From positions 64,001 through 128,000 of the forward strand of contig JALGVJ010000002.1 in assembly GCA_029838195.1 (NCBI GenBank): a stretch of 64,000 bases of DNA, read 5' to 3'. The position numbers were made by a program, and so were the translations under genes. This document shows positions 39,297 to 57,225 of the stretch, one piece after another. Position 1 is the first letter of the stretch; each line of letters begins with the position of its first letter. Source of the DNA: Promethearchaeota archaeon. GTDB taxonomy: Archaea; Asgardarchaeota; Lokiarchaeia; Sigyniarchaeales; SOKP01. The notes beneath the pieces are model-generated. The model worked only from the letters and a program-made list of their open reading frames with translations, was not told the origin of the DNA and ran no database searches.

Positions 39297-42200
39297 ATGA
39301 CCGAAGAATCTTCAGACCAGGTGAAAATGAAGCTTAGCGGAATGACTTGTGCCTCTTGTGCTTTAAAAATTGAAACCAAACTAAAAGGTTTAAAGGGAGT
39401 TAAAAGAACCGTCGTTAATTTTGCCAATGAAGAAGCTATTGTGGAATATGATTCTAAAAAAATCAATTATGAGGATTTCAATAAAGCCATTCGTGATTTG
39501 GGGTATAAATCCAGTTTAGCAAAAATGGATTTAAAAGTCCTTAATTCAATGGCCGAAAAAGAGTTTGAAAGCTTAGTAAATAAGATAAAAACTATTGAGG
39601 GTATTCATGATGTTAGGGCAAATTATAATGCAAGCAAAGTATTTGTAGAATTCAATGAATTAAAAACAAGCGAGACCGAAATAATTAAAAACATCAAGAA
39701 ATTAAATATCGAAATTGAAAAAACAGCCAGTGCCATTGATAAAGAGATAGAACAGCATAAGAAAGAAATGAAATATAGGTTGAGAATTTTAACCATTTCC
39801 TTAATCTTGACTTTAATAATTACTCCGATTAGTTGGTTTGTTCCTGAATCTTTTAATAGAAATTTGATTCTCTTTTTCCTTGCATTGATTAATTATGCGG
39901 TAGGAGGAACATTTTTTCTAATTGGAGCCATTCGTTCATTAAAAAACAAATCTACCAATATGGATGTTTTAGTGGCTTTAGGTACTACTACTGCATTGAT
40001 CTATTCAATTTTAACCACATTTTTCATTGAAGGCTCTACGTTTTTTGAAGCCATGAGTATGATCCTAACGTTTCTTTTAATTGGGAAATATCTTGAACAT
40101 AAAACTAAAGGACAAGCATCAGATGCCATAAAGAAATTAATTGGATTACAACCAAAAACAGCTACGCTATTAAAAGATAGTAAGGAAATAGAAATTCCAA
40201 TTGAAGAGATTGAAATTGGGGATGTTCTAATAGTTCGACCAGGTGAAAAAATACCTGTGGACGGAAAAATCATAAAAGGCAGCACGAAAATAGACGAATC
40301 CATGATAACAGGGGAAAGCCAATATGTGAAAAAGAAAGAGGGTGATGAAGTAATAGGAGCTACGGTAAATCAAACGGGCCTTATCCACGTCATGGCCGAG
40401 AAAGTAGGAAAAGATACGTTATTATTTCAAATAATCGATTTTGTTAAACAAGCACAAAGCAAAAAAGCTGCAAAACAACAATTAGCAGATAAAGTTAGTA
40501 ATTATTTTGTACCCGTCGTAGTTCTTATTGCCTCGATCGCCTTTCTTTACTGGTATTTCATAGCAGGCATGGGATTAGAATTATCTTTATTAATATTTAC
40601 CTCTGTAGTTGTAATTTCCTGCCCCTGTGCGCTAGGATTGGCAATTCCCACAGCCGTGATGGTGGGAACGGGTAAAGGTGCTGAAACAGGTATTTTAATA
40701 AAAGGAGGAGATTCTCTTGAAGCCATTAATTCAATAAACACGATAGTTTTCGATAAAACAGGAACTTTAACCGTAGGGAAACCCAGAGTATCCGCCATTT
40801 TTTCAGAAAAAAAGAAACAAGGAACAGGATTTGATGATAAAGAATTGTTATACTTTGCAGGAAGTGCTGAATTAGGATCGGAACATTCTCTTGCGCGTGC
40901 GATTATCGAAGAAGCAAATCAATTAGGTCTTAATTTAAATGCGCCTAAAGAATTTGAAGCCGTTCCGGGTAAAGGAATCATTGCTACTGTAGACAGAAAA
41001 GAAATTTTAGTAGGCAACGAAAAATTAATGGAGGACCATGACATTGATACTAGCGTCTTTAAGGAAGAATTTAAGAAAATTCAAGAAGAGGGAAGAACGG
41101 CAGTTTTCGTGTCCGTAGAGAAGGTAATAAAAGGCATCTTAGGAATTTCGGATAAAATTAAAGATCAAGCTCCCTATGCTCTCGATAAATTAAGAGAAAT
41201 GAAGCTTGACCTCTACATGCTCACGGGAGATAATAAACAAACAGCCATGTCAATAGGTAAGCAATTAGGTTTTGATGAACACCATATTTTAGCAGAAGTA
41301 CTTCCTAATGATAAGGCTTTAACCATTCAAAAACTTCAAGAATCGCAAAAAGGATTAAGAGTAGCCATGGTAGGAGATGGTATTAATGATTCGCCCGCCT
41401 TGGCTCAAGCTGACGTAGGAATTGCAGTAGGTTCGGGCACGGATATCGCTATTGAAACTGCAGATATCGTGTTAATGAGAGGGGATTTGAGGAATGTCGT
41501 TTCTGCCATAAAATTGTCCAAAAAAACATACAAAAAAATGATTACTAACTTATTTTGGGCATTTATTTACAATATCATAGGCATTCCGTTGGCAGCTGGC
41601 GTGTTATATTTCTTAACAGGATATTTTTTACCTCCTTACCTCGCAGCAGTATTCATGGCGACAAGTTCTGTTTCAGTGGTGACAAACGCCCTCTTTTTAA
41701 AGCGTTATGATCCAAGAACAGAACAACAAATTGAAGAAGAAAAATTATTAATGATGGAGGAAAAAGTTATTGATCCCGTGTGCGGAATGGAGGTTGTTCC
41801 TTCTAAGGCCATTGAATATCTATATAAAGGAACTAAATATTATTTCTGTAATCCAAATTGTGAGGCGCGTTTTAGAAGTGATCCTGAAACATTTAAAAAT
41901 TTTGATAACATGAATCCCGGTTTAATGCATAAACCCTTATCAGAAACGAATTTAGTGGAAGACCCCGTATGCGGAATGAAAGGGAAGCCCAATGATTGGA
42001 TTGAATATGAGCATGAAGGAAAAAAATATTATTTTTGCAATCAGTCTTGCCTGGTCGAATTTAAAAAGAATCCGTCGAAATATATAGATAAGAAAGATGA
42101 AAAGACCGAAGAATTTTTAAAAAAGCAACATGAAAAAGAAATAATAAAAAATGAAAAAATTAAAGTTGAGGAGGAAAAGCAAGATATGGGTAAATTAAAA

Positions 42201-42353
42201 TGTTCCGTGTGTGGAGCTGAACAAGAAATTCCACAGCATTGTGGAAAGCCCATGTATGTTGAAGGTGATCAATTAGTCTGCTGGATGGGAGCATCATGTG
42301 GAGCTCAACCCATACCAGAACATTGCGGAAAGAAAATGGAAATTGTCAACTAA
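39297..42353 (+). CDS. copA: P1B-1 Cu(I)-exporting ATPase with N-terminal HMA domains, two YHS/TRASH domains and a terminal Cys/His module
   Basis: 'GMTCASC', 'TGES', 'CPC', 'DKTGTLT', 'WAFIYN', 'MATSS', two 'DPVCGM...YYFC' units. Confidence 0.95.
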
Positions 42354-42479
42354 TTGTTTATAATTTTTTAAAATCTTTTTTTTAATATATATCTATAAAA
42401 CTAAATTAAACCATTATTAGTCTTTTAGAAGTTCCTAATTGTTTGAAAATTAAAATAAATTAAATTAAGAAGAAAATAA

Positions 42480-44798
42480 TCACGTATTATATTTTTCTCG
42501 TTTTTTAATATAATTTTCAAAATGTCTTGAAAAAAGAGCGTGATTTGGAATGCGTGTTACTTCCTTTTTAAACTTTGGAAATTCTTTATTTAATAATGAA
42601 AGAATATTTTTCCAAGCCTTTTGATGTTCGGTTTTTGATCCAATTGATTTAGCCAAACAAGCCATGACATCTCTTGATTTTTGCCTCTTAAGATTCACTT
42701 GCATCACGTTAATAATTTTCTTTTTTAAATTCTTATAATCATCAGGTCTAAAACTTTCTAAAGAGAGAGCAAGAGAATCATCGGAAATCGGTATTATTTT
42801 AATGAGTTTATCTTCTTTAACATCTGCATTTGGAACTAATTCTAATTCAAAATCCTCCTTACTAATCCTTTCTAAAATGGGATATAAATCGCCCGGCGTA
42901 ATTTTAGTCTGTAATTCAATTTGAAAAGCAATATCGGAAATCGGAATGTAATAATTAGGATATTTTTCAGGATTCTCAATTCGAAAAATATATTCTTTCT
43001 TGATAATATCAAGAATTTGTTGTTTTATGGGCTCCGGAATCTTTCCTTCCTTAAAAGTGATTTTTTGGAACTTTAATTCTTTTGCTTTTTCTATTCTCTC
43101 TTCTTCTTGGAGTTTTTTTTTATAATTGGTCGAAAGGGAAGCTATAAATTGATCAGTTGCCTTATCGGCCTTTAAATCTGCCTTTAAACTCAATTCAGCA
43201 CGTCTTGGACGTGAAATGGAACGAATTAATTTGTCCGAGAGAAATTTTTGAGCTTTTTTTCGAGCAATATCTTTCTTTTCGAATTGTTCTGTGATTGAAA
43301 GAAAATCAATCATTAAAATAGACTTACCTCTTCCTTCTGATACCCGTTTTAATTCAATGTTTAAATCTTTTTGTGCGAGCCTTTTGATTAAAGATCGAAT
43401 GACTGCTTTCGATTGACGTGTTGTTTTCATTAATTGAAGTTCAATAGACTCTAAAGGAAAAGGTTCGCCTCTTCTAATATATTCATTTCTAATAAATTTA
43501 TAAATAATATCCATTGTCCTTTCCTCTTCATCTATGAGTTCTTTTTCCATTCTCAGGAACATGGATGTTTCATGAGGTTTCATGTAATAAAGTAAAAGCG
43601 TCAAACCCACAAAAATAATCATTATAATTGAGATAATATATTTATCAGCTAATAGAATTAAACCAAATCCGGAAATCTCTTGATTAGGAATATGAGTTGA
43701 TAAGGAATAGCGGGTGGTAGTTTGAGCAAAAATAGTAGATAACATGAATAAAATTAGTCCATCTTGTTTAAAGAATAAAATTTGCCATCCTAATGTTTTA
43801 CCCGTTTTATAAATCACGCGATATAAGAAAAACATGGAAACTCCGAATTCTAAAAAAAAAAAGAAGCTCGCGACACTCCCACTTGTTCCCAATACATTTT
43901 TTAGAGAATTTACGGTTTCAGGGCGTAATAACAAGTAAATCGTCAACTGCATTAGTTGGAAAAAGAATATGAAAAATACAATGAGGGAAAATGTAAAATT
44001 ATCAAAAATTCCTGCTCTACGCGTTTCTGCCCTTCTCCGAGTAAATACAAATTCTAAAGAAACAAAAATCATGGTAACAATCAAACTAAAATAGATTAGG
44101 GGCATGATGATTCTCATTTCCACATAATATACTAAAATTGCACCATGAGGATCCAAGGGAGCAAGGAAATCTAACGATAAATAGACCAGAAGAGCTCTAT
44201 AAAGCCAAGAAATAAATACCAATCCCGCTAAAATAAGAAATGGAGTAATTGTCACGATTAAATTTCTAAATACAGAATATTTTTTAATAATGCGTGCTTC
44301 AATTTCGGTTGAAAATCTCCTTGAATATATATAAAACCTACTGCTATAAATGAATAGCCAGATCATGGAAAATGTGAGTAAGAAGTAAGTTAGATTGAGT
44401 GAGGTCCCAATAACCCGTGCAAATAATAAAAAGAGAGGAATGAATATTCCAAGATACAAGCAAATTTGTTTTATTACAGTATTTTTCAGGAAAATAAATT
44501 CCCTAATTTGGTTGTTGCTATAGAGCAAAGAAAGTACTAAGTAAAAAATAATGAGGGAATTAGCAATGGCAAAGGGATTTCCAATTGTAAAAAATGATAT
44601 AATAACATTGTCGGGATTATTAATAGCAAATAATAATATAAAGGAATAAAATAGAAAGATGATATAAAGCCCTAAAAATTTTTTTTCAAAAGAAAAAGAC
44701 TTTGGAGGTTCTTGATTTTTTAAAAGTAAGGTATCTGGGAACAGAATTTTTTTTATCCTTTCCTTTAATTGACGTGGAGTAGTGTTCGTTTTTGACAT
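42480..44798 (-). CDS. Polytopic membrane protein (about 10 TM) with a large cytoplasmic region containing two related winged-helix-like repeats
   Basis: Hydrophobic residues about 40-405; repeats 'IIYKFIRNEY...IELQ...KDLNIEL' and 'ILDIIKKEY...IELQ...EDFELEL'. Confidence 0.7.
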   Translation of the reverse strand: MSKTNTTPRQLKERIKKILFPDTLLLKNQEPPKSFSFEKKFLGLYIIFLFYSFILLFAINNPDNVIISFFTIGNPFAIANSLIIFYLVLSLLYSNNQIREFIFLKNTVIKQICLYLGIFIPLFLLFARVIGTSLNLTYFLLTFSMIWLFIYSSRFYIYSRRFSTEIEARIIKKYSVFRNLIVTITPFLILAGLVFISWLYRALLVYLSLDFLAPLDPHGAILVYYVEMRIIMPLIYFSLIVTMIFVSLEFVFTRRRAETRRAGIFDNFTFSLIVFFIFFFQLMQLTIYLLLRPETVNSLKNVLGTSGSVASFFFFLEFGVSMFFLYRVIYKTGKTLGWQILFFKQDGLILFMLSTIFAQTTTRYSLSTHIPNQEISGFGLILLADKYIISIIMIIFVGLTLLLYYMKPHETSMFLRMEKELIDEEERTMDIIYKFIRNEYIRRGEPFPLESIELQLMKTTRQSKAVIRSLIKRLAQKDLNIELKRVSEGRGKSILMIDFLSITEQFEKKDIARKKAQKFLSDKLIRSISRPRRAELSLKADLKADKATDQFIASLSTNYKKKLQEEERIEKAKELKFQKITFKEGKIPEPIKQQILDIIKKEYIFRIENPEKYPNYYIPISDIAFQIELQTKITPGDLYPILERISKEDFELELVPNADVKEDKLIKIIPISDDSLALSLESFRPDDYKNLKKKIINVMQVNLKRQKSRDVMACLAKSIGSKTEHQKAWKNILSLLNKEFPKFKKEVTRIPNHALFSRHFENYIKKREKYNT

Positions 44799-45254
44799 TA
44801 TGTTTTTAATTCTGTTTTAAAAATTAATGCATTAATTAGTTTAAAAAATTTATGGATTAAATTTATTATGGAGAATTAAAAATTCTTATAGTTCAAATAG
44901 TAAAAAATGGTAAATTACAAAACGACAGAAAAATATTGAACATTTTCTATTAATCTGGGTCATGAATTCATGATTGTACAAAACCTTTATAGATAAAAAA
45001 ATTCATGATAAACATGATTACAAGGGCAATAAATTTAAAAAATCTAACATGTTTCTCATTTTTCTAAGATTTAGATTCCACGCTTTCATTTTGTTATGAT
45101 TTTGGATTTTATTTAATTAATATTAATTAACCTAATTTTAAAGTAAAAAAATTAATCTTAAAAAATTAAGGACAATAGAGATCATGTAGAAGATAACTTT
45201 AAAAAGATTAACATGTAAGATTTAAATATAAAACCATCATTTTTCTATATAAGA

Positions 45255-45521
45255 ATGGATAAAGAGAAAGAAAACCTTCTTGAATTCATTAAAAAAGCCA
45301 TTGAATATTTGGCAGAAAATAACATCTCAGATGTTGTTATTCTCTCCTCTTATAAAATTGCCTCTGTATTAAAAGAAAATTATGGCGTAGATATCAAAAT
45401 TGATAGAATAGGACGAGTTCTAAGCAATGTTGCTAAAAATAATCAATTAAAGCGGTTACAAACCAACATTCCTAAATATCAGTTATATAAACAAAAAATC
45501 CATACGTTGCGGTATTTCTAA
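45255..45521 (+). CDS. Small winged-helix-like protein
   Basis: 88 aa; 'SSYKIASVL...IDRIGRVLSNVA...KYQL' helix-turn-helix plus wing pattern. Confidence 0.6.
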   Translation: MDKEKENLLEFIKKAIEYLAENNISDVVILSSYKIASVLKENYGVDIKIDRIGRVLSNVAKNNQLKRLQTNIPKYQLYKQKIHTLRYF

Positions 45522-45560
45522 CTACGACATGTAAATTAAAATAGAAAAAAGATATCGTTT

Positions 45561-46907
45561 TCATGGTTTTTCCATTTGTTTAACCAAATCAGTGAGGGTT
45601 TTCAGGAGAGATTGAAAGGTGCTAACTTGATTTCTTAACGCATTAAATTTCTCAATAAATAGCTTATTCGTATCATCTATTTCTTGTTGATATTGTCCCA
45701 TGCTGGTATTAACATCTTGTTGAATTTTTGAAAAAATATCTTCCATCTCTTCCTTTATTTGATTTAATTTGCCTCTAAACTCCTCATATTTTTTTATGAT
45801 TTCTTTTGAAACAAAACTCGATATGTCTGAAGTGTTGGATAATCTCGAATCTAACTCTCTTAACGTTTCTATCACCTTGGAATAGTTGGAATTTAAATCC
45901 TTTTCCACGGTGTCAATGATCTCTTGTTTTGTTTTCTTTATGGCTTTTTCCCATTGATGTATCATGGTTTCATGTTCATCCTTATTCTCCATCAATTTTA
46001 AGAGAAATTCATTTAATTCTTGCTTAAATTGCTCTATTATCCATCCTTCTATTTTTTTTATCCCTCTTGAAATTCGCTTTTTCATGGATTCGGTCGTTTC
46101 TTTTAAATCATCCGCACCTTTAGTTGTACCTTCTTCAATGCGTTTTAGCCACGGATTGAAATTTGATTCAAAAGAGGCCGTGATGGAATTTGAGAGGGCG
46201 TTAAATGCTAATCTCATCCCATTAGATAAAAAAGGCTTTTCTGATTCAACATCTCCTTTTTCCCCCTCAATTAAAGCTGTTTTTGGAATTTCCTGTAATT
46301 CTCTCCCTGGAATGGGCTCTATCTCTCTTAATTCTTTTATAAATCTGGTATCATTGAACTCTCGAAGTTCGATTAATTCTTTAATCCATGTAAAATATTC
46401 TAAACTATCGGGTAATTCTATTTCCACATCCATTTCATGATATTGGAATGAATCCTTAGAATTTAGCCGGTCCATGCGAAACGCTTTTAGTTCTATCTTT
46501 TTATCCTCATTAAATAAAAGCGGATTGAAAATAATACAAAATCCAGTAGGATTACTCTCATTTTGAATTAATTGATGATTAGGTAAATCACTTTCATTAA
46601 ATTTTATTTGCTCTTGTAAGGAAGTGCGATACCATCCAAGAATGGATTGGTCTTCAGGTTTATATCGCTCATTAATTCGGAGCAGCAATTTTTCCTCAAA
46701 AGCAGGAATTTCTTCTGCCATTAATTCTACATGATCAAAAGGCACGCACTCATTTATGATAATTTTTTTTCCATTTTTTTCTTGGATTCCCAAGCAAAAA
46801 CCCACTACATTATATCTCTTTTCTAAGGCAGGACTTCCAAATCTAAGGGCATGACGAATCATTTGATGAAAGGCACGCCTCGTTAGTTTTATTAAAATGT
46901 TTTCCAT
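45561..46907 (-). CDS. MPN- (JAMM-dead) protein with long coiled-coil tail
   Basis: MPN fold motifs 'MIRHALRFG', 'NVVGFCLG', 'ILGWYRTS', 'FCIIFNP', 'KAFRM'; catalytic Glu and HxH are replaced. Confidence 0.8.
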   Translation of the reverse strand: MENILIKLTRRAFHQMIRHALRFGSPALEKRYNVVGFCLGIQEKNGKKIIINECVPFDHVELMAEEIPAFEEKLLLRINERYKPEDQSILGWYRTSLQEQIKFNESDLPNHQLIQNESNPTGFCIIFNPLLFNEDKKIELKAFRMDRLNSKDSFQYHEMDVEIELPDSLEYFTWIKELIELREFNDTRFIKELREIEPIPGRELQEIPKTALIEGEKGDVESEKPFLSNGMRLAFNALSNSITASFESNFNPWLKRIEEGTTKGADDLKETTESMKKRISRGIKKIEGWIIEQFKQELNEFLLKLMENKDEHETMIHQWEKAIKKTKQEIIDTVEKDLNSNYSKVIETLRELDSRLSNTSDISSFVSKEIIKKYEEFRGKLNQIKEEMEDIFSKIQQDVNTSMGQYQQEIDDTNKLFIEKFNALRNQVSTFQSLLKTLTDLVKQMEKP

Positions 46908-48433
46908 TATTCTTTTTTACCTTCCGCTTCTTGTTTTTTGTTCAATTCTGAAGTTAATTGTTTAATTTTTTTTTCGGATTGCGTTAACTTGTCTACTAAT
47001 CTATTCTTTTCAGCTGTTAATGTATTAATCTCCCTTTTTAATTCGCCTAGCTCTTCTTCCTGCTTACGAATAATTCCTTCATTTTTTTCTTTAATTCCTT
47101 CTATTTGAGTTATCATGTCTTTTAATATCGAATTGTGATTTTCCATTTCTCCCAACAATTCACTAGCAAGTTGTTCCATTTCCTCCCGATTAGTTTCCAT
47201 CCATTCTTGAAAATGAGTTTCCTTCGCCTTAATGTTTTCCTCAAGATTCGATTTAAACATGAAAACCTTCTCTTTTAACGGTTGAGCGTAATTTTTATCC
47301 AAATCTTCCAATTTTATTTGTTCCTCCAATTCTCTTGAAATTTTCTCTATATTATTGTAGTTGTTTTTAAAATTTTCTACCAAACCTTCGAAAGGCTCGT
47401 GAAAAGCTGCTTTAAAAATAGTATCAATTTTCGATTTGATATCATTTTTTAACAAATTCAAGTCCTCTAACAAGATTGGCTCGTGTTCTTCCAGTAGTAT
47501 TTCTTGTTCCACCCAAATGCTATCTATTCCATCTAGCCCTTCCTTTATAGAATTTTTTATCATTTTCTGAATGGAATGCAAACCCTCTCTTATCGTCCTG
47601 GCGATTTCTTCTAAATTTTCTCTCATCATGAAATTGGTCTTGATAATCCTCCTGAGTAGCTCTTGACTCCATTCATTTAAATATTCCACGAAGGGTTTTA
47701 TAAAGCCCTTTATGAGTTCATTTAACCCATTCTTTAGATGCCCCAAAAACTCCTCGTAATTTATTGAAGGACGCCTTGATTTTAATTGCTCTCGTGAGGG
47801 TATAAAAATTTCTCCAATAAAATCAGGCACTTCTTTGAGTTCCAAAATAGGAGGTTGCTTTTCATGGATTGAATTCATTAGTTCGATGAGTTTAAGGTAA
47901 TATTTTTGCGAATCCGGGACCTCTATAATCGTCTTTACCTCGTGATATTTTGAATTTACTCCCTTCGAAGGATCATCTAACCGAAATGTTCGAAAGCCTA
48001 CATCGCCCGGTTTTTCCAAATATAAATGATCGAAAACAATTCCAATCGCACTTGGATTTCCACTCTGCCACCCCAATTGATTCCTTATATCCGTTCTGGA
48101 AAAAAATATGGTGAGCTCAGGATGAGAATGATACCAACCCACTCCAAATAAATTCTGTTTCGCATATTTCATGTCGATCGCTTCAAAAACAGAATAATCC
48201 TCGGGAGAAAAAGAAACCTCAATAGAGCTTCCGTGAGAAATGGGAACAGCATCCTCCACGATTACGTTTTTTGGTGTTCCTTCCCCCTCTAATCGCCCGA
48301 TTAAAACGCCCATGACTTCTCTCAAGCGATTTTTATCGCGTGACTTGTTTCCAAAACGGAGCACGTGCATGAGCATCTTATAATATGCTTTCGGTCTAAT
48401 TATCACGATTGAGTTATCTTTCACGCTCAACAC
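46907..48433 (-). CDS. MPN+/JAMM isopeptidase (Rpn11/CSN5-like) with long coiled-coil tail
   Basis: 'KMLMH', 'EVMGVLIG', 'GWYHSHP', 'FSRTD', 'AIGIVFD'; complete JAMM motif; GTG start. Confidence 0.9.
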   Translation of the reverse strand: MLSVKDNSIVIIRPKAYYKMLMHVLRFGNKSRDKNRLREVMGVLIGRLEGEGTPKNVIVEDAVPISHGSSIEVSFSPEDYSVFEAIDMKYAKQNLFGVGWYHSHPELTIFFSRTDIRNQLGWQSGNPSAIGIVFDHLYLEKPGDVGFRTFRLDDPSKGVNSKYHEVKTIIEVPDSQKYYLKLIELMNSIHEKQPPILELKEVPDFIGEIFIPSREQLKSRRPSINYEEFLGHLKNGLNELIKGFIKPFVEYLNEWSQELLRRIIKTNFMMRENLEEIARTIREGLHSIQKMIKNSIKEGLDGIDSIWVEQEILLEEHEPILLEDLNLLKNDIKSKIDTIFKAAFHEPFEGLVENFKNNYNNIEKISRELEEQIKLEDLDKNYAQPLKEKVFMFKSNLEENIKAKETHFQEWMETNREEMEQLASELLGEMENHNSILKDMITQIEGIKEKNEGIIRKQEEELGELKREINTLTAEKNRLVDKLTQSEKKIKQLTSELNKKQEAEGKKE

Positions 48434-48561
48434 TATATTCGTTGATACCTTAAATTTATTCTACAATTTTTAAATTGCTTAATAATGATATTAAAAATAT
48501 ATTTTCTAATTAAAATAAATAGAAACTAATGCTCCTTAATATTGGAATGTGTAAAACACTC

Positions 48562-49245
48562 CTAATGGGGTAATTTTTTACCACAATAAGGACAATAGAT
48601 CCAATTCAAATTTCCTCCGCAATAGGGACAAAATCTAGACCCTTTATCTTTTTCTCCTTTTTTTGCTCCAGCAGGCCCGCTACTTGGAATGAAAGGAACA
48701 GTTTCTTGATCAGAACCCGAAGGTATGGAAGGAAGCGTGCGTGAAGTCTTAGTAGCGGGAGGTGCAGGCTCCGTAAAAGGAGGTTCTTGCTCGCGAGAAA
48801 ACAATACTCTTTGCTGAAATGCTTGCCTCTTTTCTTCTTCGGTTTTAGGTTTATCTATTACCGTTCCTTGGGTCGCGGGTCTTTTTAATTCGGATTCAGG
48901 TACTTTGTCCAATTTTATATGCTTGGTCTCTGATACGGGAGCAGACATTCGCATTTTGTCTTTTTTATCTAGGGCTTGTTTCAATAAGGCTTGTACAGTC
49001 TTCATTATGCCGTATGGATTTATATTGGGGAGCGTGACAGTCCTTAGAACCCATCCAACAATGATATTCGAGTTTGGTCTGTCACCCTCCACATCTTCAT
49101 CTTTAAACACGTAAGAATCGATGATATTTTTTCCTTTTAGAATTCTACCTGCCCATTTGCCATTAATTAATCCCAATTGTAAGAGATAAGAAGTTCCGGA
49201 GATTCCTAATGCCGTAGTTAACGGCTCAAATCCTAATTCTACCAT
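48562..49245 (-). CDS. Hypothetical protein with Pro-rich linker and C-terminal zinc ribbon
   Basis: Globular N-terminal ~95 aa; P/S/T-rich linker; 'FCPYCG...YCPYCGKKL'. Confidence 0.75.
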   Translation of the reverse strand: MVELGFEPLTTALGISGTSYLLQLGLINGKWAGRILKGKNIIDSYVFKDEDVEGDRPNSNIIVGWVLRTVTLPNINPYGIMKTVQALLKQALDKKDKMRMSAPVSETKHIKLDKVPESELKRPATQGTVIDKPKTEEEKRQAFQQRVLFSREQEPPFTEPAPPATKTSRTLPSIPSGSDQETVPFIPSSGPAGAKKGEKDKGSRFCPYCGGNLNWIYCPYCGKKLPH

Positions 49246-49421
49246 TTAAATCACTATTCACATTTAAGATGACATGAAATATCATGGATGAATATTACTA
49301 ATTAGATAGAAATTTTTCTATAAATAATTTTTGTCTTTTCTATGACAGAGTAAAAAAAAATAAAAACATGTTCTTTTATAATTGTTTTAAAAGTAAATAA
49401 ATATCAAAAAATGGAAACAAC

Positions 49422-50381
49422 ATGACCGTTATTATTCCTAAGGAAGTATATTTTACGATTGTTGCCGCGTGTGTTCGATTTGCCAATAAGAAGATTCCGA
49501 GAGAGCGGTGGTTAGAGGAGTGTGGAATTTTCATCGGAAAAAACGTGGGGAAAAAGAAAGACCAAGATGTGGTAATTACGGCGGCTTATCCTATCATGCA
49601 TGAAACGTATGATCCAAACGCAGTGGTCGATCGATATGTATGGTCCGATGAGGATTATATCTCTACGACGATGATTGAAGATGAGGCTTTTGCGCGAAAT
49701 GAATTCGTGGTAGGATGGTGGCATTCGCATCCGGGTTTCAAGGTAATGTTATCGGGTTTTGGGGATAGAAAAACCACGCTCTCCTATCAGAGCTTGAATC
49801 CTTTAGCCATTGCCTTGGTATTCAATCATGAGCGGTTGCTTCGTCAAATAGAGCTTCCCGGTAGGCAAGGGGATCCGGTGAAGCAATTAAAAAATGATCC
49901 TGGCTTCAAGATTTTTAGGTTAGAGGATCCTAATAATGAGAAGAGCAATACTATTGAAGTGAAGTATCGAATAGAAGGGTTTGAAAGTCCGGAACAAATG
50001 GTCTTGGAGGCTCAGAAGCTCATTATAGATATCACTAACTTTTTTCCCCCGGATAATCTCGTGGAGTTTTATAGTAATTACATTAATGGACGGATCAGTA
50101 AATTAAATTCTCAATTATTGGGCACGGAGGAATATTTGAGGACATTACTTCGTAAGGGGGAGGGACATCGCGTTTCTGAGGTATTGGAGCAGCAAAAGAA
50201 GGACATTCAAAAATACGTGGCAGAAACGTTTCTTCAGATTGAAAAAATTAAGAGTTTCATGAACTATCTCGAATATAAAGAGAGGACGAGGGTAATTCCG
50301 GCGATTGAAGATATTTTGCACCTTTGGGATGAAACCATTGGCGGCTTGGATGAAAAATTAGCGGAGCTTTCCCGGATTTAA
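49422..50381 (+). CDS. MPN+/JAMM protein with helical C-terminal region (third paralog)
   Basis: 'EECGIFIG', 'VVGWWHSHPG', 'LSGFGD', 'AIALVFN', 'GFKIFRL'. Confidence 0.85.
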   Translation: MTVIIPKEVYFTIVAACVRFANKKIPRERWLEECGIFIGKNVGKKKDQDVVITAAYPIMHETYDPNAVVDRYVWSDEDYISTTMIEDEAFARNEFVVGWWHSHPGFKVMLSGFGDRKTTLSYQSLNPLAIALVFNHERLLRQIELPGRQGDPVKQLKNDPGFKIFRLEDPNNEKSNTIEVKYRIEGFESPEQMVLEAQKLIIDITNFFPPDNLVEFYSNYINGRISKLNSQLLGTEEYLRTLLRKGEGHRVSEVLEQQKKDIQKYVAETFLQIEKIKSFMNYLEYKERTRVIPAIEDILHLWDETIGGLDEKLAELSRI

Positions 50382-50627
50382 AAATTTTTTTTAAGAAAAA
50401 CATGGGATCCGTGTTTAAATTTAAATTTTTTCAGTGTAATGCATGTTTTCGCAAGTGATTAAGCGGATTTTCAAGGAAAAAGTTTACCTTTCCCTAATTT
50501 TAATAGTATTGAATCATACAAAATCTTTTTTTGCTTTCTAAGTTTTTATGGGAAAAAGGTTTAACATAAATTAATTTTCAAAAAATTGGATTAAAGAAGA
50601 TAAGCAATAACTCAATATAGCATTAAG

Positions 50628-52832
50628 ATGAAGAGGATAAATTTTCCGTTTACAGCGATAATTGGACAAGATAAAATGAAGATAGCTTTAATTTTGAACG
50701 TGCTGGATCCGTTAATTGGAGGTGTTCTTCTTACGGGGCATCAAGGAACTGGAAAATCTACTGCTGTCCGATCTTTAGTGGATATAATGCCAAAAATAGA
50801 AGTGGTGAAAGATTGTCCCTTTTCTTGTGATCCTAATTCGAATTTAGATGAGCTCTGTGATGAGTGTAGAGAGAAAAAGGAAAAGGGAATCTTGGAAACC
50901 GAATGGAGAGAAATGGAATTAGTGAATCTTCCTTTAGGATGTACTGAAGATATGGTTTGCGGCTCTCTCTCAATTGACAAGGTGCTCACGAAAGGGGTTT
51001 CGGAGCTTCATCCGGGATTATTGGCAAAAGCAAATCGAGGAATCCTTTATATAGATGAGATCAATTTGCTTCAAGATCACATAGTGGATACACTTTTAGA
51101 TTCCGCTGCTTCGGGGGTAAATATTATTGAACGAGAAGGAATTTCGGTTATTCATCCTGCCCGATTCGTTTTGGTTGGAAGTATGAACCCTGAGGAAGGT
51201 GAATTACGTCCGCAAATAGCAGATCGCTTGGGATTAGAAGTAAAAATCGTTTCTCCTCGAAATCCGAAAATTAGAGCAGAAATTACAAAGAGGGTCATTG
51301 AATTTAATGACAATCCAAAAGAATTTATCAAGCAATTCGAAAAAGAACAAAAAGATTTAAAAGAGAGAATAATCCGGGCTCGTAAAATAATCAAGGAGGT
51401 TGAAATTCCAACTGCTGTCTACGAATTAGTTTCGAAAATTGTAGATGAATTAGAGATTTATTCGCAACGTGCGGATATCACTTTCATTCGGTGTGCGCGA
51501 GCTCATGCAGCATTCAATGGAAGAAAAAAAATTAATCAAGAGGATATTAACGTTGCCATGGATTTAGTTTTTGAACACCGAATTAAATCCCTTCATTATG
51601 AAATGACCCCTCAAGAGATTGAAGCAAAAATCACCGAGGTATATGGCAAAATAAGAGAAGCCATAGAAGATTTAAACGTTTACCAACCAAATAAGGAAAC
51701 AGAAGGCCCTTTAAAGCATACAGACGAACCGCAAAAAGAATTTCAGAGACAACCCATCGATCCGGATAAAGTTGACATACCTGAAACGAGAGAACAAAAA
51801 TTACCTCCTCCAAAGTATCCCGATAAAAAAGAAAGAGAAGCTAAACCAGCAGGGGGATGGAAAGTTAAGAATATTCCGAAGTACAAGGAGGATCTAAATT
51901 TTTTCGAAAATAAGATGGACGCACTTCCTTTAATTTATAATATGGAAAAACGCATGACCTCTATATTAAATAATTTAAGGAAAGACAGGAAGATTTCTAA
52001 TTATGGAGGTAGGGGCATAGGTAGGAGAATAAAGATGGTCTCTTCCCGGAAAGGCAGATACGTTTCTTATAGAATTCCAATTAATCATCAACCGAAATCG
52101 TTAGCCTTGGACGCAACCATTCGAACATTCTTTAAAAATCAAGTCTATAATCATACGAAAATCGATTTTCCCATTAAATTCGAAGAAAACGACTTGAGAG
52201 ATAAAATCTTTGAATATCGAGCACCCTTAGCTCTATTTTTTGTATTAGATAGTTCTGCCTCCATGTATTATGTCATCAAACAGATGACGGATGTCATTCT
52301 CTCCCTCCAAAAAGAAGGGTACAGAAAGCGTGATAAAATCGCATTAATCATATTTCGAGGTAAAGATGCAATAGTTTTACAAAAACCCACCGTCTCGTTT
52401 CAAAATGCGCTGCGCAAATTAAAAAACATTAAAGGAAAATCCTACACGCCAATGGCTGCAGGTTTAAATGAATGCCTCAAGCTCATTAAAATTGAGAAAT
52501 TGAAGAACCGAAACATCATTCCGGTAATTTTTATTTGTTCTGATTGTGGAGCTAACATCTCCGTTAAATATCCGGATCTCGTAGCCCAGGTAGAATCTGA
52601 TTACACTTTAATCGTGGAAGAATTAAATGACATCGCAAAAAAAATCGCAAAACACCGCATTCATTTAATTGTATTGGAACCAAAAAAATCCCAAGCCACG
52701 AGAGCTCTTGGAGTTCATCCTTACTCTGCAGAAATGATAAAAAAGAATTTTAAAAAACACGGAGCCGATATCTATCAATTTGACAGATATAATCCCTCTT
52801 CGCTTATTTTGGAACTTAAGAAAATCTTATGA
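50628..52832 (+). CDS. ChlI/ChlD-type AAA+ ATPase fused to a vWA domain
   Basis: 'FPFTAIIGQ', Walker A 'GHQGTGKS', Walker B 'LYIDE', 'MNPEEGELRPQ', Pro-rich linker, MIDAS 'DSSASM', 'TPMA'. Confidence 0.92.
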   Translation: MKRINFPFTAIIGQDKMKIALILNVLDPLIGGVLLTGHQGTGKSTAVRSLVDIMPKIEVVKDCPFSCDPNSNLDELCDECREKKEKGILETEWREMELVNLPLGCTEDMVCGSLSIDKVLTKGVSELHPGLLAKANRGILYIDEINLLQDHIVDTLLDSAASGVNIIEREGISVIHPARFVLVGSMNPEEGELRPQIADRLGLEVKIVSPRNPKIRAEITKRVIEFNDNPKEFIKQFEKEQKDLKERIIRARKIIKEVEIPTAVYELVSKIVDELEIYSQRADITFIRCARAHAAFNGRKKINQEDINVAMDLVFEHRIKSLHYEMTPQEIEAKITEVYGKIREAIEDLNVYQPNKETEGPLKHTDEPQKEFQRQPIDPDKVDIPETREQKLPPPKYPDKKEREAKPAGGWKVKNIPKYKEDLNFFENKMDALPLIYNMEKRMTSILNNLRKDRKISNYGGRGIGRRIKMVSSRKGRYVSYRIPINHQPKSLALDATIRTFFKNQVYNHTKIDFPIKFEENDLRDKIFEYRAPLALFFVLDSSASMYYVIKQMTDVILSLQKEGYRKRDKIALIIFRGKDAIVLQKPTVSFQNALRKLKNIKGKSYTPMAAGLNECLKLIKIEKLKNRNIIPVIFICSDCGANISVKYPDLVAQVESDYTLIVEELNDIAKKIAKHRIHLIVLEPKKSQATRALGVHPYSAEMIKKNFKKHGADIYQFDRYNPSSLILELKKIL

Positions 52833-52894
52833 GGGATATTTTTTTATTATAAAACACTCATTTTTCCACGAATGGTATTTCGTAGTTCTATCTC

Positions 52895-54169
52895 ATGAAG
52901 CAAGTAAAAAAAAAATCCGTATTAGTAGTAGGATTTAATTCCCGTCCTTTAGTTTCTTCTTTAAAACAAGCAGGATATGAAATATATGTCGTAGATTTTT
53001 TTGGAGACTTAGATCTTTATCCGCTCGTAAAAGATAGTATCATTTTAACAAAAGAATTAGGTAAAAACTATTCACTTTTGAGAAAAGACTACGGTAAATT
53101 CTTAACTTCTTATACTATTGAAATGATGCTAAAATATCGGTTTATTGATTATTTAATCATAGGAAGTGGGTTAGATGATGGTTTTGAGGAAAGAGATTTA
53201 ATTCTCAATGCGATAAAAGAAAACGAATTAACTATCACGTATATTAATAATGATACCCGCGTGGTTAAAAATACCAGAAATATTATCAAACTCCATGAAA
53301 TATTAAAAAAAAATGGATTTCATGTTCCCAAAACAGTTTCCTTTATTGCATATAAAAAAAATCAAACCTCATTAGAGTATCCGCTGGTATTGAAGAAAAA
53401 AACGGGTAGTGGGGGCGTGAATGTATATAAATTTGAAAATGAACGTGAATTAAACTTCTTAATTAAAAGATTTTCAATTTCCAATGATTTTAAGCCGGAA
53501 GAATGGTTTGTTCAAGAATATTTAAAAGGAATCCCCGTGAGCTGTACAATAATCTCAAATGGAAAAGAGAGTAAAGTAGTGTCAATTAACCGCCAAATAA
53601 TTGGGTTAAATTATTTAAATCCACCTAGTGAGTTCATGTATTGTGGGAATATCGTGCCGGCGAACTTATTAAAGAGTGATGATGAAAAAATTGCTAAAAT
53701 ATCGCTCTTTTTATCAAAACATCTTGGTTTAAAGGGGATTAATGGATTTGATTTTGTTTTAAAAAATCATCAACCATATTTCATGGAGATAAATCCAAGA
53801 ATTCCCGGTTCAATCAACGCTTCCGAAGCGGCTTTAAATTTAAATTTATTAGATCTGCATCTTAAATCGTTTGATGACAATAAATGGGAAGAAATAAGTG
53901 AAATTTTTGATAAAGTCCAACCCAAGCAATTTGCAACTAAATTAATTTTCTTTTCCCCTCATGCAATATCCGAACAGAAAATAGAACAAATTAATTGCTT
54001 AAAACACCTACATGATAAGACCATTCCGGAAAAACGTGCAAATAAAGGAGAGCCTTTATGCACGATTCTTCATGTAAATAATTCATTTAATTCTTCATTT
54101 TTTGGAGCTTTAAAAATTGTTGATAAGATCTATGAGATCCTTGAAAATAGGCCCTCCTTAAAAAACTAA
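52895..54169 (+). CDS. ATP-grasp protein (COG2232-like, methanopterin/C1-associated family)
   Basis: 'DFFGDLD', 'GSGG', 'QEYLKG', 'YCGNI', 'GINGFDF', 'EINPRIPG'. Confidence 0.85.
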   Translation: MKQVKKKSVLVVGFNSRPLVSSLKQAGYEIYVVDFFGDLDLYPLVKDSIILTKELGKNYSLLRKDYGKFLTSYTIEMMLKYRFIDYLIIGSGLDDGFEERDLILNAIKENELTITYINNDTRVVKNTRNIIKLHEILKKNGFHVPKTVSFIAYKKNQTSLEYPLVLKKKTGSGGVNVYKFENERELNFLIKRFSISNDFKPEEWFVQEYLKGIPVSCTIISNGKESKVVSINRQIIGLNYLNPPSEFMYCGNIVPANLLKSDDEKIAKISLFLSKHLGLKGINGFDFVLKNHQPYFMEINPRIPGSINASEAALNLNLLDLHLKSFDDNKWEEISEIFDKVQPKQFATKLIFFSPHAISEQKIEQINCLKHLHDKTIPEKRANKGEPLCTILHVNNSFNSSFFGALKIVDKIYEILENRPSLKN

Positions 54170-54283: not shown

Positions 54284-55027
54284 TTAGGCCTTAATTATAT
54301 TTTTGATTCGAACAATGTAACTTCCTAATTTTTCTTTTGCAGGAACAGCAATACATAAAAGCCTTCTCTCGTCAATACTATGGATGATAATTGACCCTTG
54401 TTCTCCGGAAATAATTGAATATTCCAGATCTTTAGTTTGTAATAAAATGTCAGACAAATTAAAAAGGGCTGAAACCATCGCCGAAATCATCGGTTCTGGC
54501 ATGGCACTCTGAATTCTTATGGGAAGTCCATCTCGAGTCATGATAGCAATAAAACTAAGATCAGGGATGGCTCGCTTTAAAGCTTTAAAAATTTCTTCTT
54601 TAATTAATTCGGAGGTTTCGATATAAGCAGAAATCTGTAAAGCAAAATTTTCTAAACGCTTCACGTACAGATCAAGCCCTTCTAACTCAGCCAATTCACG
54701 ATTCAAATACGCAACAAGGGTGATATTTTCCGTTAAATAGCTGAGAATTATGCGTTCTTTTCCGGTAATGATATCATGAGAAATTTTTTGATTTAAGGAA
54801 TCTCTGATTAATTTCGAAGAGAGAAAAAGCAAACTGCTTGTTGCGGCTGAAATTTCATCTTCTCTTAATTTCGGGGAATATTGTTCTTTAAAATGACTCG
54901 CAATTGGAGAACCACCTTGCGTGCCGATGTTAATACCTAATAAAGCAGAGTTTTCAGATAATTCTTTTTTAATTAAATTTTCAATCTCTAGATTAATCTG
55001 TTCAAAATTTTCCTTATCAATCTCCAT
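54284..55027 (-). CDS. Tandem (double) roadblock/LC7 domain protein
   Basis: Two units: 'GTQGGSPIAS...ISAATSSL' and 'MTRDGLPI...ISAMVSAL...IISGEQGSII'. Confidence 0.8.
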   Translation of the reverse strand: MEIDKENFEQINLEIENLIKKELSENSALLGINIGTQGGSPIASHFKEQYSPKLREDEISAATSSLLFLSSKLIRDSLNQKISHDIITGKERIILSYLTENITLVAYLNRELAELEGLDLYVKRLENFALQISAYIETSELIKEEIFKALKRAIPDLSFIAIMTRDGLPIRIQSAMPEPMISAMVSALFNLSDILLQTKDLEYSIISGEQGSIIIHSIDERRLLCIAVPAKEKLGSYIVRIKNIIKA

Positions 55028-55146
55028 ATAAAGAAAAAAATAAATTCGGATATTTATATATATTCAAATCCAAAAAAATTCTATTGAATCATGAGTTAAA
55101 AATACTTATAAAATTTATTTTAATTTCCTTTTCTTTTCGAACTAAA

Positions 55147-56250
55147 ATGATGGTAATTGTTTTAGCAGCAGGATTAGCTACAAGACTCCGTCCACTTTCG
55201 AATCGAATACCAAAACCTTTAATTGATATTTCCGGAAAACCTCTCATAACTCGAATTATTCATGCGTTTAAAAATGCCGGTTTGAAGGATTTTTTAATTT
55301 TAACGGGTTATAAAGCTAATTTAATAAAAAATGAAATAAAGAAAATTAAAGGAATTAATACTTTTTACGCGAATCAAGAAAAACAAGCAGGAATGGCGGA
55401 TGCTTTATTATTATGTCTTGAGTATTTAAAGGAAAAAAATGGCTATCTTTCAGATTTTTTTCTTACAGCTTCGGATATTCTATTTTCTCCAAACGTTATC
55501 CAATTGATGCAAGAATGCCATGTTTCGACGAATTCTGATGGAATCCTTACACTGATGGAATCAAAAAATGAATTCATAGCACGATCTCATGGAAATGTTA
55601 AATTATCAGGTATAAATGTTATTAAAATCGGAAATTATTCCCAAATTCTATGGAATGTAGCAGATATTATAGAAAAACCTGAACCTCACCAAATTTTAAG
55701 TGATCTGTACTCTTTACCTCTTTATATATTTACACCCGGTATTTATGAACCATTAAAAAAAGTAAAACCTTCGCTTCGAGGGGAAAAAGAGCTCCAAGAC
55801 GCCATTAAACTAATGATTAGAGATAATGCAAGAATTTTTGGTTTAAAAATAATAGAAGAACTCATCACGCCAGAGAATATTGGAAAATATCATCTCACCT
55901 ACTTGCGAGATATCCAACAAATGAATTTTCAATTCCTTTCAAATATTTTTGTTAAAACTAAAAGGAAAAATTTACCTAAGATTCAGAAACCCGCATTAAT
56001 CGAAGAAAAAGTAAAAATCGGGGAAAATGTATCTTTAGGCCCAAATGTCATTGTAAAAAAAGGAGCGGTAATACAAAATAATTGTAAGATTTCTAATTCT
56101 ATTTTATATGAAAGGAGCAAGATAAATCCATCATGTGAGATAAATGGTTGCATAATAGATGAGAAAATAAAGATTCCTCCTAATCTACACGTGAATAACA
56201 AGTTTTTATACATGGATGAAGAGGGAAATTTAAAAAGCAAGGATTTATGA
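55147..56250 (+). CDS. NDP-sugar pyrophosphorylase / nucleotidyltransferase
   Basis: 'VLAAGLATRLRPLSNRIPKPL', 'IIEKP', 'SLRGEKELQDA', C-terminal hexapeptide-like repeats; start set at 55147. Confidence 0.88.
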   Translation: MMVIVLAAGLATRLRPLSNRIPKPLIDISGKPLITRIIHAFKNAGLKDFLILTGYKANLIKNEIKKIKGINTFYANQEKQAGMADALLLCLEYLKEKNGYLSDFFLTASDILFSPNVIQLMQECHVSTNSDGILTLMESKNEFIARSHGNVKLSGINVIKIGNYSQILWNVADIIEKPEPHQILSDLYSLPLYIFTPGIYEPLKKVKPSLRGEKELQDAIKLMIRDNARIFGLKIIEELITPENIGKYHLTYLRDIQQMNFQFLSNIFVKTKRKNLPKIQKPALIEEKVKIGENVSLGPNVIVKKGAVIQNNCKISNSILYERSKINPSCEINGCIIDEKIKIPPNLHVNNKFLYMDEEGNLKSKDL

Positions 56251-56391
56251 AAATATTAAATGTTAATCAAAAGGTTTTAATCTAGTCTATATTTTTTAAT
56301 CATGAGCGATATAATCATTATAAGATTTTTTTCAAATTATCATCAAATTTATTATAAAAAATTTAAAAAAAGTGAAAGATCTAGAGAAATA

Positions 56392-57225
56392 ATGGAAGAT
56401 TTAAAAATTCAAATTGAACTCAAGGATAAAATGATTAAAACACTTCAAGACTCCATTAAATTAAAAGAAGATCAAATTGCAACGTTAATGGATTCCTTAT
56501 CGTTAAAAGATAAACAATTGGAATCGTTGCAAGCCTCCTTGGAAAAAAAAGATGAAAAAATAAAAGCTTTAGAAGAAACGTTAGAAATAAAAAAAGAAGA
56601 ATTAAAAAAGCTAAGTTCTGCTACTATTATTGACGATGCTGTACTTAATGAAAAAGATGAATTAATAGAAGAGTTAAATAATAAAATTGAAATCTTAAAT
56701 CAAGAATTAGAAAAATCTGATGAAGAAATAGAAAAGTTGAAACTAGCAAATCAACTGTTAAAAGAAAACAAAAAGGAGAGCGCTTCATCAACTTCTCAAA
56801 TCATTAATTATACTCATTATGAGTTGTCCCGCGATGATATTCTTTCTTACATGAAAAAGATTTTAGATCAAGCACTTCATAAGGTAATCATCACGACTCC
56901 AACCATAACTGATCTACAAGAACTCTATTTATATGAGATTAAATCTTCAGTTAGCATGAGCATTTCTTGTTTCATTGATCAAAGTAATCCCGACGATATG
57001 GAACTTTTAGAAGAATTTGAACACTTCGATAATATCAATATCAGACATTTCGAAGAAAAAGATCGCTACATGATGTTAAAAGACGGAGAAGAATTACTCT
57101 TGGGTATAATCGGAGAAAATAATTCTAATATTCTCATTTTTCACACGTTAGATCCAAAACACGTGAAAACCCTTAATTCCCTTGCTATTGATAGCTGGGT
57201 ACGCAGTAAAAAAATTGTATTTTAG
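56392..57225 (+). CDS. Coiled-coil protein with C-terminal PLD-like/TrmB-effector-like domain
   Basis: 14-residue periodic 'KDxxIxxLxxSL' coil, then 'ALHKVIITTP...INIR...MMLKDGEELLL'; start set at MEDLK. Confidence 0.6.
   Translation: MEDLKIQIELKDKMIKTLQDSIKLKEDQIATLMDSLSLKDKQLESLQASLEKKDEKIKALEETLEIKKEELKKLSSATIIDDAVLNEKDELIEELNNKIEILNQELEKSDEEIEKLKLANQLLKENKKESASSTSQIINYTHYELSRDDILSYMKKILDQALHKVIITTPTITDLQELYLYEIKSSVSMSISCFIDQSNPDDMELLEEFEHFDNINIRHFEEKDRYMMLKDGEELLLGIIGENNSNILIFHTLDPKHVKTLNSLAIDSWVRSKKIVF

Follow-up and report, generated by a model that had tools for sequence, protein, structure and literature searches.

The window analysed here, 64,000 nucleotides (nt) long, comprises positions 64001-128000 of contig C72 in a 4.5-Mb Asgard assembly (Promethearchaeota, Loki-type; genome G000, 96.6% complete). 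Seven consecutive genes, A to G, lie at 42480-52832 of this window. Two of them, D and C, encode an MPN+ protein of the JAMM type and an MPN- pseudo-enzyme, an active/dead MPN pair which, on the best reading of the sequences, appears to have arisen independently in this Asgard lineage. All seven open reading frames (ORFs) are real genes, and the domains assigned to them in a first-pass annotation agreed with ORF positions, Pfam matches and motifs, apart from a winged helix ascribed to B. In window coordinates, with lengths in amino acids (aa), the genes are as follows.

A, 42480-44798, minus strand: polytopic membrane protein, 772 aa.
B, 45255-45521, plus strand: conserved small protein, 88 aa; convergent with C, divergent from A.
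C, 45561-46907, minus strand: MPN- pseudo-enzyme, 448 aa; Pfam JAB 27.9 bits.
D, 46907-48433, minus strand: MPN+ (JAMM) protein, 508 aa; Pfam JAB 50.8 bits.
E, 48562-49245, minus strand: zinc-ribbon protein, 227 aa.
F, 49422-50381, plus strand: third MPN+ protein, 319 aa; Pfam JAB 34 bits; divergent from E.
G, 50628-52832, plus strand: ChlI/ChlD-type AAA+-von Willebrand factor A (vWA) fusion, 734 aa.

C, D and F all matched Pfam JAB (gathering cut-off 22.5 bits) and, with motifs read from the translations, were MPN-, MPN+ and a third MPN+ as annotated. Public records name these proteins 'Mov34/MPN/PAD-1 family' or hypothetical. Ubiquitin (Ub), E1 and E2 genes were not found in the region, in line with the annotation. 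Rfam gave no family at gathering score within 42000-53500, and the A-B intergenic gap (44799-45254, the sole gap checked for small ORFs) held none longer than 41 aa. For synteny, the 20-kb neighbourhoods of 20 relatives were compared, with homologs of 15 window genes located by tblastn; phyletic counts were drawn from 301 sampled genomes of the phylum. Loci of relatives are labelled L0xx, genomes G0xx, and genera g4 and g9.

The D-C gene pair

D consists of an MPN domain (approximately residues 1-190) followed by a helical tail of approximately 315 aa. Its catalytic site is complete in the translation and in the ortholog alignment (E39, H102-S-H104-x7-S112-xx-D115), and the catalytic residues are all kept in 20/20 orthologs examined. 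The site of C is degenerate, with N33, R94-T-S96 and N104 in place of the Glu, the HxH and the Ser, and with D107 retained; C is MPN- in this genome, with the catalytic Glu, the two His and the Ser all gone.

48089-48130, minus strand: JAMM motif of D (H102-S-H-x7-S-xx-D115), with the catalytic Glu39 at 48317-48319.
46587-46628, minus strand: degenerate JAMM region of C (R-T-S ... N-x-x-D).

D was read from a GTG start. The public gene call (P0008, 487 aa) starts 21 residues downstream of this codon and skips the residues encoded at 48371-48433 (minus strand); it is probably truncated at the N-terminus, because the strand left out has counterparts, by alignment, at the N-termini of C and F. 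In a PDB search the closest solved relatives of D were the Caldiarchaeum Rpn11-like protein, Rpn11, BRCC36, CSN5 and AMSH, the best sequence matches being Rpn11 and the Caldiarchaeum homolog (E 1e-9 to 1e-8). C had no PDB match. A search for related loci in the genome_contigs set, with D as the query, returned no relative.

Phylogenetic trees were built with IQ-TREE, and support was given by the SH-like approximate likelihood ratio test (SH-aLRT). When 66 MPN domains of the window's genome and related genomes were placed on a tree, D and C formed a joint clade (97% SH-aLRT) and the F orthologs a single group; in a tree of the D/C set alone, D was split from C by a branch with 99% SH-aLRT. These branches indicate that C is a paralog of D which arose within this archaeal order, the two being sisters. 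Descent of D and C from eukaryotic MPN+/MPN- pairs was not seen, as both were sister clades within Lokiarchaeial sequences on trees with no eukaryotic sequences among the taxa. The orthologs of C span every state from fully intact (e.g. L041, L056, L057) to fully dead (the window), the first His is replaced by R, S, I, L or C depending on the genus, and the state varies even inside one genus (L038 vs. L041). By parsimony the metal ligands were lost at least 3 times independently, and counting the Glu loss as well raises the minimum to 5 changes.

D and C were adjacent in 19/20 of the relatives' loci examined. In the window the start of C and the stop codon of D share 1 nt, and in relatives the distance from D stop to C start was -19 to +17 nt, when an in-frame Met just past the stop was taken as the start; this range is a re-reading of in-frame Met codons, and the scripted gaps reach 132 nt. 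In many relatives D and C share a frame with one stop codon (TAA or TGA) between them, and for these the search reports open frames of approximately 950-975 aa with one internal stop. Programmed read-through of the stop was rejected, because the frame relation differs between genomes (as in the 1-nt overlap here), and the same-frame arrangement with a single stop is read as chance. The full-length pair was found in 66/68 genomes of the window's family vs. 3/232 other sampled genomes of the phylum.

Heptad stretches were located in the tails of both proteins, at residues 254-297, 348-375 and 395-506 of D and at 329-448 of the helical tail of C, so that the terminal stretches are of like length. 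The heptad signal covered 0.59 (D) and 0.61 (C) of tail residues vs. 0.06-0.08 in shuffles; charged residues are abundant in the tails, and Pro and Gly scarce. When the tail was used alone as a query, only 3 proteins matched among 5.8 billion, and the tail sequence appears to evolve very fast.

Proteins F, E, A and B

The motif of F was read from the translation as E33, H101-S-H103-x7-S111-x3-D115. The S-x3-D spacing is confined to the window's genus, and other genera carry the canonical S-xx-D. F has a helical tail of approximately 130 aa, full-length orthologs in sister families (38-43% identity), and the same JAMM set as D for its nearest solved relatives (Caldiarchaeum Rpn11-like, Rpn11, BRCC36, CSN5, AMSH). 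In two assemblies the F ortholog lies in two adjacent pieces (L041, 11748-12738; L053, 11784-12721), reflecting either sequencing error or a pseudogene. The motifs and domains of F, E and A are placed as follows.

49722-49766, plus strand: JAMM motif of F, with S-x3-D.
48583-48630, minus strand: zinc ribbon of E (CxxC-x8-CxxC), the four Cys nearly invariant in orthologs.
43581-44678, minus strand: transmembrane region of A, approximately residues 41-406.
43302-43568 and 42795-43034, minus strand: two cytoplasmic winged helices of A, then a helical C-terminus.

E comprises a conserved N-domain (residues 1-100), a conserved linear motif (approximately 106-127), a disordered linker carrying conserved short motifs in the ortholog alignment, and the C-terminal ribbon. 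Its annotation as a zinc-ribbon protein was upheld by the near-invariant Cys, and Pfam zinc-ribbon matches were weak and sub-threshold (22.5-24.7 bits vs. cut-offs of 25-27.3). An AlphaFold2 (AF2) model of the N-domain gave four strands and two helices, with a predicted local distance difference test (pLDDT) score of approximately 90 for residues 11-100. Foldseek against PDB returned nothing for the N-domain at E <= 0.001, the best VIA match (Z 6.8) was within noise, with scattered PH-like rows at Z of approximately 4, and a uL22 match from a PDB profile search was judged spurious. The N-domain family occurred in 133/301 sampled genomes, within proteins of approximately 290-390 aa, and in the protein atlas A and E matched only unnamed Promethearchaeota clusters. 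In two distant Asgard lineages an E homolog adjoins a 326-aa AN1 zinc finger-M50 (site-2 type) membrane protease (L091:1435-3063 in G258; L085:4331-6788 in G075); in the window's genome the AN1-M50 protease is on contig C23, away from E. A second MPN/zinc-finger adjacency in the genome was noted on contig C7, where a further long MPN+ protein (L058:6006-8414, minus strand; 525 aa, the tail with weak sub-threshold Rgg_C and SNAP matches) precedes a 187-aa protein that has two CPYCG...H...C zinc knuckles and is unrelated to E apart from the CPYCG motif.

Hydropathy gave approximately 10 hydrophobic segments for A, and its two cytoplasmic repeats were homologous by hhalign (96%, E 2.6e-9), which bore out the annotation as a membrane protein with repeated cytoplasmic domains. 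Both repeats were modelled as winged helices (AF2 mean pLDDT 72.6), with a secondary structure of two alpha1-beta1-alpha2-alpha3-beta2-beta3 units. Their best VIA and Foldseek matches were all winged helices, the top one being that of Cdt1 (Z 10.1, root-mean-square deviation 2.5 over 88 residues), and they matched the protein-binding winged-helix domains of Cdt1, ORC2, ESCRT-II and cullin (WHB); the 50 best structural rows included no subunit of the lid, CSN or eIF3. No Pfam or NCBIfam family was assigned to A, and a PDB profile search with the full length gave nothing below E 0.4. B is a strongly conserved gene (mean column identity 65% in the alignment of orthologs) and was found in 38/41 relatives. 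A weak DUF5797 match was obtained in 13/17 members of the B family; there was no PDB sequence match, and hhalign gave no similarity between B and the repeats of A.

Gene order, phyletic spread and the G block

Most loci examined in the window's family retain the order A-B-C-D-E-F-G. This conservation counts towards the first-pass proposal of one membrane-associated deconjugation or remodelling machine, in which D-C, F, E and B would dock on the winged helices of A, and G would act as motor and vWA receptor; all told, we consider such a machine unlikely. The flanking Cu-ATPase, ATP-grasp, Roadblock, coiled-coil and PHP genes are equally syntenic in the family, so that family-level synteny is weak evidence of function. 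Insertions of 1.3-4.6 kb part F from G in several same-family genomes (L042-L046), and in genus g9 the F-G-H-I-K block lies 13-19 kb away from E-D-C-B-A, although the adjacency of F and G, a point for the single machine, survives that rearrangement.

The locus comes apart in sister families. There E and F stay paired, divergently or in tandem, in three genera (L074, L075), B and A are still neighbours in eight genomes, and D-C in L054 is surrounded by unrelated genes; in the closed 4.4-Mb genome G032, E, B, A, G and F are scattered over 45 kb. A single machine would find some favour in two loci of other families: in L056 (5446-9670; G039, sister family) a run of four MPN genes that includes the D-C pair (203, 246, 471 and 452 aa, one of them degenerate) has an A homolog 2.3 kb past its end, and in L055, from a third family, B lies 8 kb from the D/C pair. 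The four-MPN run reflects local expansion of the MPN family. Homologs of A, B, E and F are spread over the whole order, also in genomes without D/C, in which the E/F and B/A pairs persist independently, and A was undetected in five same-family genomes that keep D/C; both patterns speak against one machine.

The annotation of G as a ChlI/D-type AAA+-vWA fusion was confirmed by Pfam (AAA_lid_2, Mg_chelatase, VWA_2). Its Walker A motif (G37-T45) is intact, as is the MIDAS motif (D-S-S-A-S) of the vWA domain at approximately residues 536-639. Like the chelatase motors ChlI/ChlD (BchI/BchD) and CobS/CobT, G has the ChlI AAA+ domain and the AAA lid, plus a C-terminal MIDAS-bearing vWA domain. It differs from them in scoring below the curated cut-off of TIGR02442 'putative cobaltochelatase' (591 bits, E 3e-177, vs. 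779), and CobN/ChlH (PF02514) had no match in the genome, whereas control genomes did match. A chelatase reading of G was rejected because no CobN was found; G is not an ordinary chelatase motor, and the intact motifs together with the missing CobN leave a motor for the single machine to claim. Against that claim, G was present in 207/301 sampled genomes, including families without the pair, vs. 70/301 for the D/C pair, and in the sister-family loci L072, L073, L080 and L082 it stands with K and I, far from the MPN genes. The genes downstream of G, identified by Pfam, are listed below.

H, 52895-54169, plus strand: ATP-grasp protein.
I, 54284-55027, minus strand: Roadblock protein (Roadblock/LC7, 247 aa).
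J, 55084-56250, plus strand: NTP-transferase.
K, 56302-57225, plus strand: coiled-coil protein, 307 aa.

G was judged an orphan chelatase-type motor, a neighbour of the MPN block rather than a part of it, and with I and K it may form a separate, undescribed ATPase module. The unequal spread of G and D/C, and the linkage of G to other genes in the sister family, tell against the suggestion that a vWA subunit partners an MPN complex here. The accompanying caveat, that the ChlD-type AAA+/vWA differs from the proteasomal type, was well placed, as the vWA domain of G is of the ChlD type and its profile match chelatase-like. The BRISC/BRCA1-A complex includes the vWA protein MERIT40; the vWA protein of this locus, a ChlD-type AAA+ fusion, shows no co-variation with D/C, and an analogy of G with Rpn10 or MERIT40 would extend solely to the vWA fold.

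From the break-up of the locus in sister families and the phyletic patterns, it follows that the locus is best read as three modules (E|F, D-C, B|A), with G-H-I-K as a separate block next to them. What stands of the single machine is the MPN pair, the third MPN+ protein, the ribbon protein, the winged-helix membrane protein and a block order kept in the family; the membership of G and the cohesion of the three modules outside the family do not.

Interpretation of the pair and of the locus

BRCC36 requires an MPN- partner, KIAA0157 or Abraxas, with which it pairs via MPN domains and a coiled-coil helical bundle (PMC4579573). BRCC36-Abraxas/KIAA0157, the core of BRCA1-A and BRISC, is like D-C in joining an MPN+ enzyme to an MPN- partner. 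Both of its partners carry C-terminal coiled coils that pair, as the heptad-bearing tails of D and C may do, and its dead partner is needed as scaffold and activator, the role proposed for C. The two systems differ in that D and C are mutual closest relatives, in that the full-length pair was found inside one archaeal order only, and in that the D/C tails are two to three times longer. Because D and C are closest relatives and the pair is confined to one order, the pairing would be of independent origin. Rpn11-Rpn8 and CSN5-CSN6 are likewise active/inactive MPN pairs with C-terminal helices, as D-C is by sequence, and Rpn11 is similar in size to F; however, PCI subunits, lid partners and a link to a proteasomal AAA+ were not found here. 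According to Fuchs et al. (2018; PMC6043591), no organisation of the Rpn11-Rpn8 type is known from archaea. A eukaryote-like archaeal JAMM is seen in CsRpn11 (Caldiarchaeum subterraneum) and in the MPN protein of the Asgard Ub operon (PMC6043591), and such an operon is also present on contig C26 of this genome. Unlike these, D, C and F lie outside a Ub/E1/E2 operon and carry long helical tails, and C is a pseudo-enzyme.

With moderate confidence, we infer that D and C form a heterodimer of an MPN+ enzyme with a pseudo-enzyme partner. D would be a zinc isopeptidase of the Rpn11/BRCC36/AMSH kind, to judge from its intact site and its relatives. The heterodimer would be obligate, held together by the MPN domains and by a paired C-terminal coiled coil of approximately 110-120 residues, and C, a dead or decaying twin, would act as scaffold or activator. 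The substrate is likely a conjugate formed with a ubiquitin-like protein of this genome. Three ubiquitin-like genes, on contigs C8, C87 and C26, and the separate Ub-E1-E2-MPN operon on C26 are present, so that a candidate substrate for D and F exists. E would probably be an adaptor for an MPN enzyme, namely F and perhaps D-C. B and A may provide a membrane site or docking, though not one obligatory for D/C.

Several observations weigh against the heterodimer and against a locus of separate modules. In several genomes both D and C copies have a full JAMM site, so that two active enzymes or homodimers are possible. In G017 four unrelated genes intervene between D and C. The trees were 'quick' IQ-TREE runs with the motif columns included. 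The Ub operon carries its own MPN protein (265 aa), so that D may act on something besides ubiquitin. Finally, E-D-C-B-A is contiguous across many genera of the family, which leaves room for a possible functional link among these genes.

Were that link real, E-D-C-B-A, perhaps with F, could form a membrane-docked ubiquitin-deconjugating complex of Lokiarchaeia, which we hold to be improbable. D-C would then sit on a coiled-coil stalk of approximately 17 nm (115 residues at 0.15 nm), and the zinc-ribbon adaptor would recruit D-C to the tandem winged helices of A. AMSH (with ESCRT) and BRISC are membrane-associated MPN deubiquitinases of eukaryotes, and a complex of this kind, if true, would be their archaeal functional counterpart.

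The MPN fold is retained in a structural role in eIF3f/h and in Prp8. The MPN proteins of this locus might similarly be structural coiled-coil scaffolds, or else enzymes acting on SAMP-type sulfur carriers, and in neither case proteases of ubiquitin-like tags. The fast evolution of the tails fits this reading, the repeated loss of catalytic residues in C shows that the fold is useful without catalysis, and among the NCBIfam matches D had a weak one to desampylase (E 7.7e-6, 25.8 bits vs. a cut-off of 130). However, conservation of the catalytic residues of D in every ortholog examined argues for a selected enzymatic activity, and the nearest solved relatives of D are ubiquitin isopeptidases; we regard the scaffold or sulfur-carrier reading as quite improbable, and the heterodimer is preferred over it.

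A tagging and de-tagging unit of F, G and H, in which H would add an amino-acid or peptide tag, F remove it and G remodel the target, with D-C, E, A and B unrelated, seems very improbable. All three genes run in one direction and are separated by short gaps, both in the window and in many same-family genomes (g9 among them), and H is an ATP-grasp protein of the RimK/Ddl/CPS-like kind; yet the sister-family loci examined showed no H homolog next to G and had F with E or alone, in genus g4 (L050) G abuts a Cu-ATPase gene instead of H, and no substrate for such a tag is known. A lid/PCI reading was rejected, as none of the seven proteins had a PCI domain by Pfam.

Neither the D-C pair nor the locus was found described in the literature searched. 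The analysis also brings out the E|F and B|A pairs across the order, the broad occurrence of the E domain in the sampled phylum and the linkage of G, K and I. For the proposed seven-gene machine, the comparison means that what looks like a system is mostly gene order conserved between closely related genomes. Pairing an active MPN protein with a dead one is characteristic of eukaryotic ubiquitin machinery, as seen in the proteasome lid, the signalosome and BRISC. On the best reading of the D and C sequences, this design, otherwise known from eukaryotes, would have arisen a further time, independently, in this Asgard lineage, and the decay stages of C, which differ even within a genus, offer a natural series for asking why enzymes recruit pseudo-enzyme partners.

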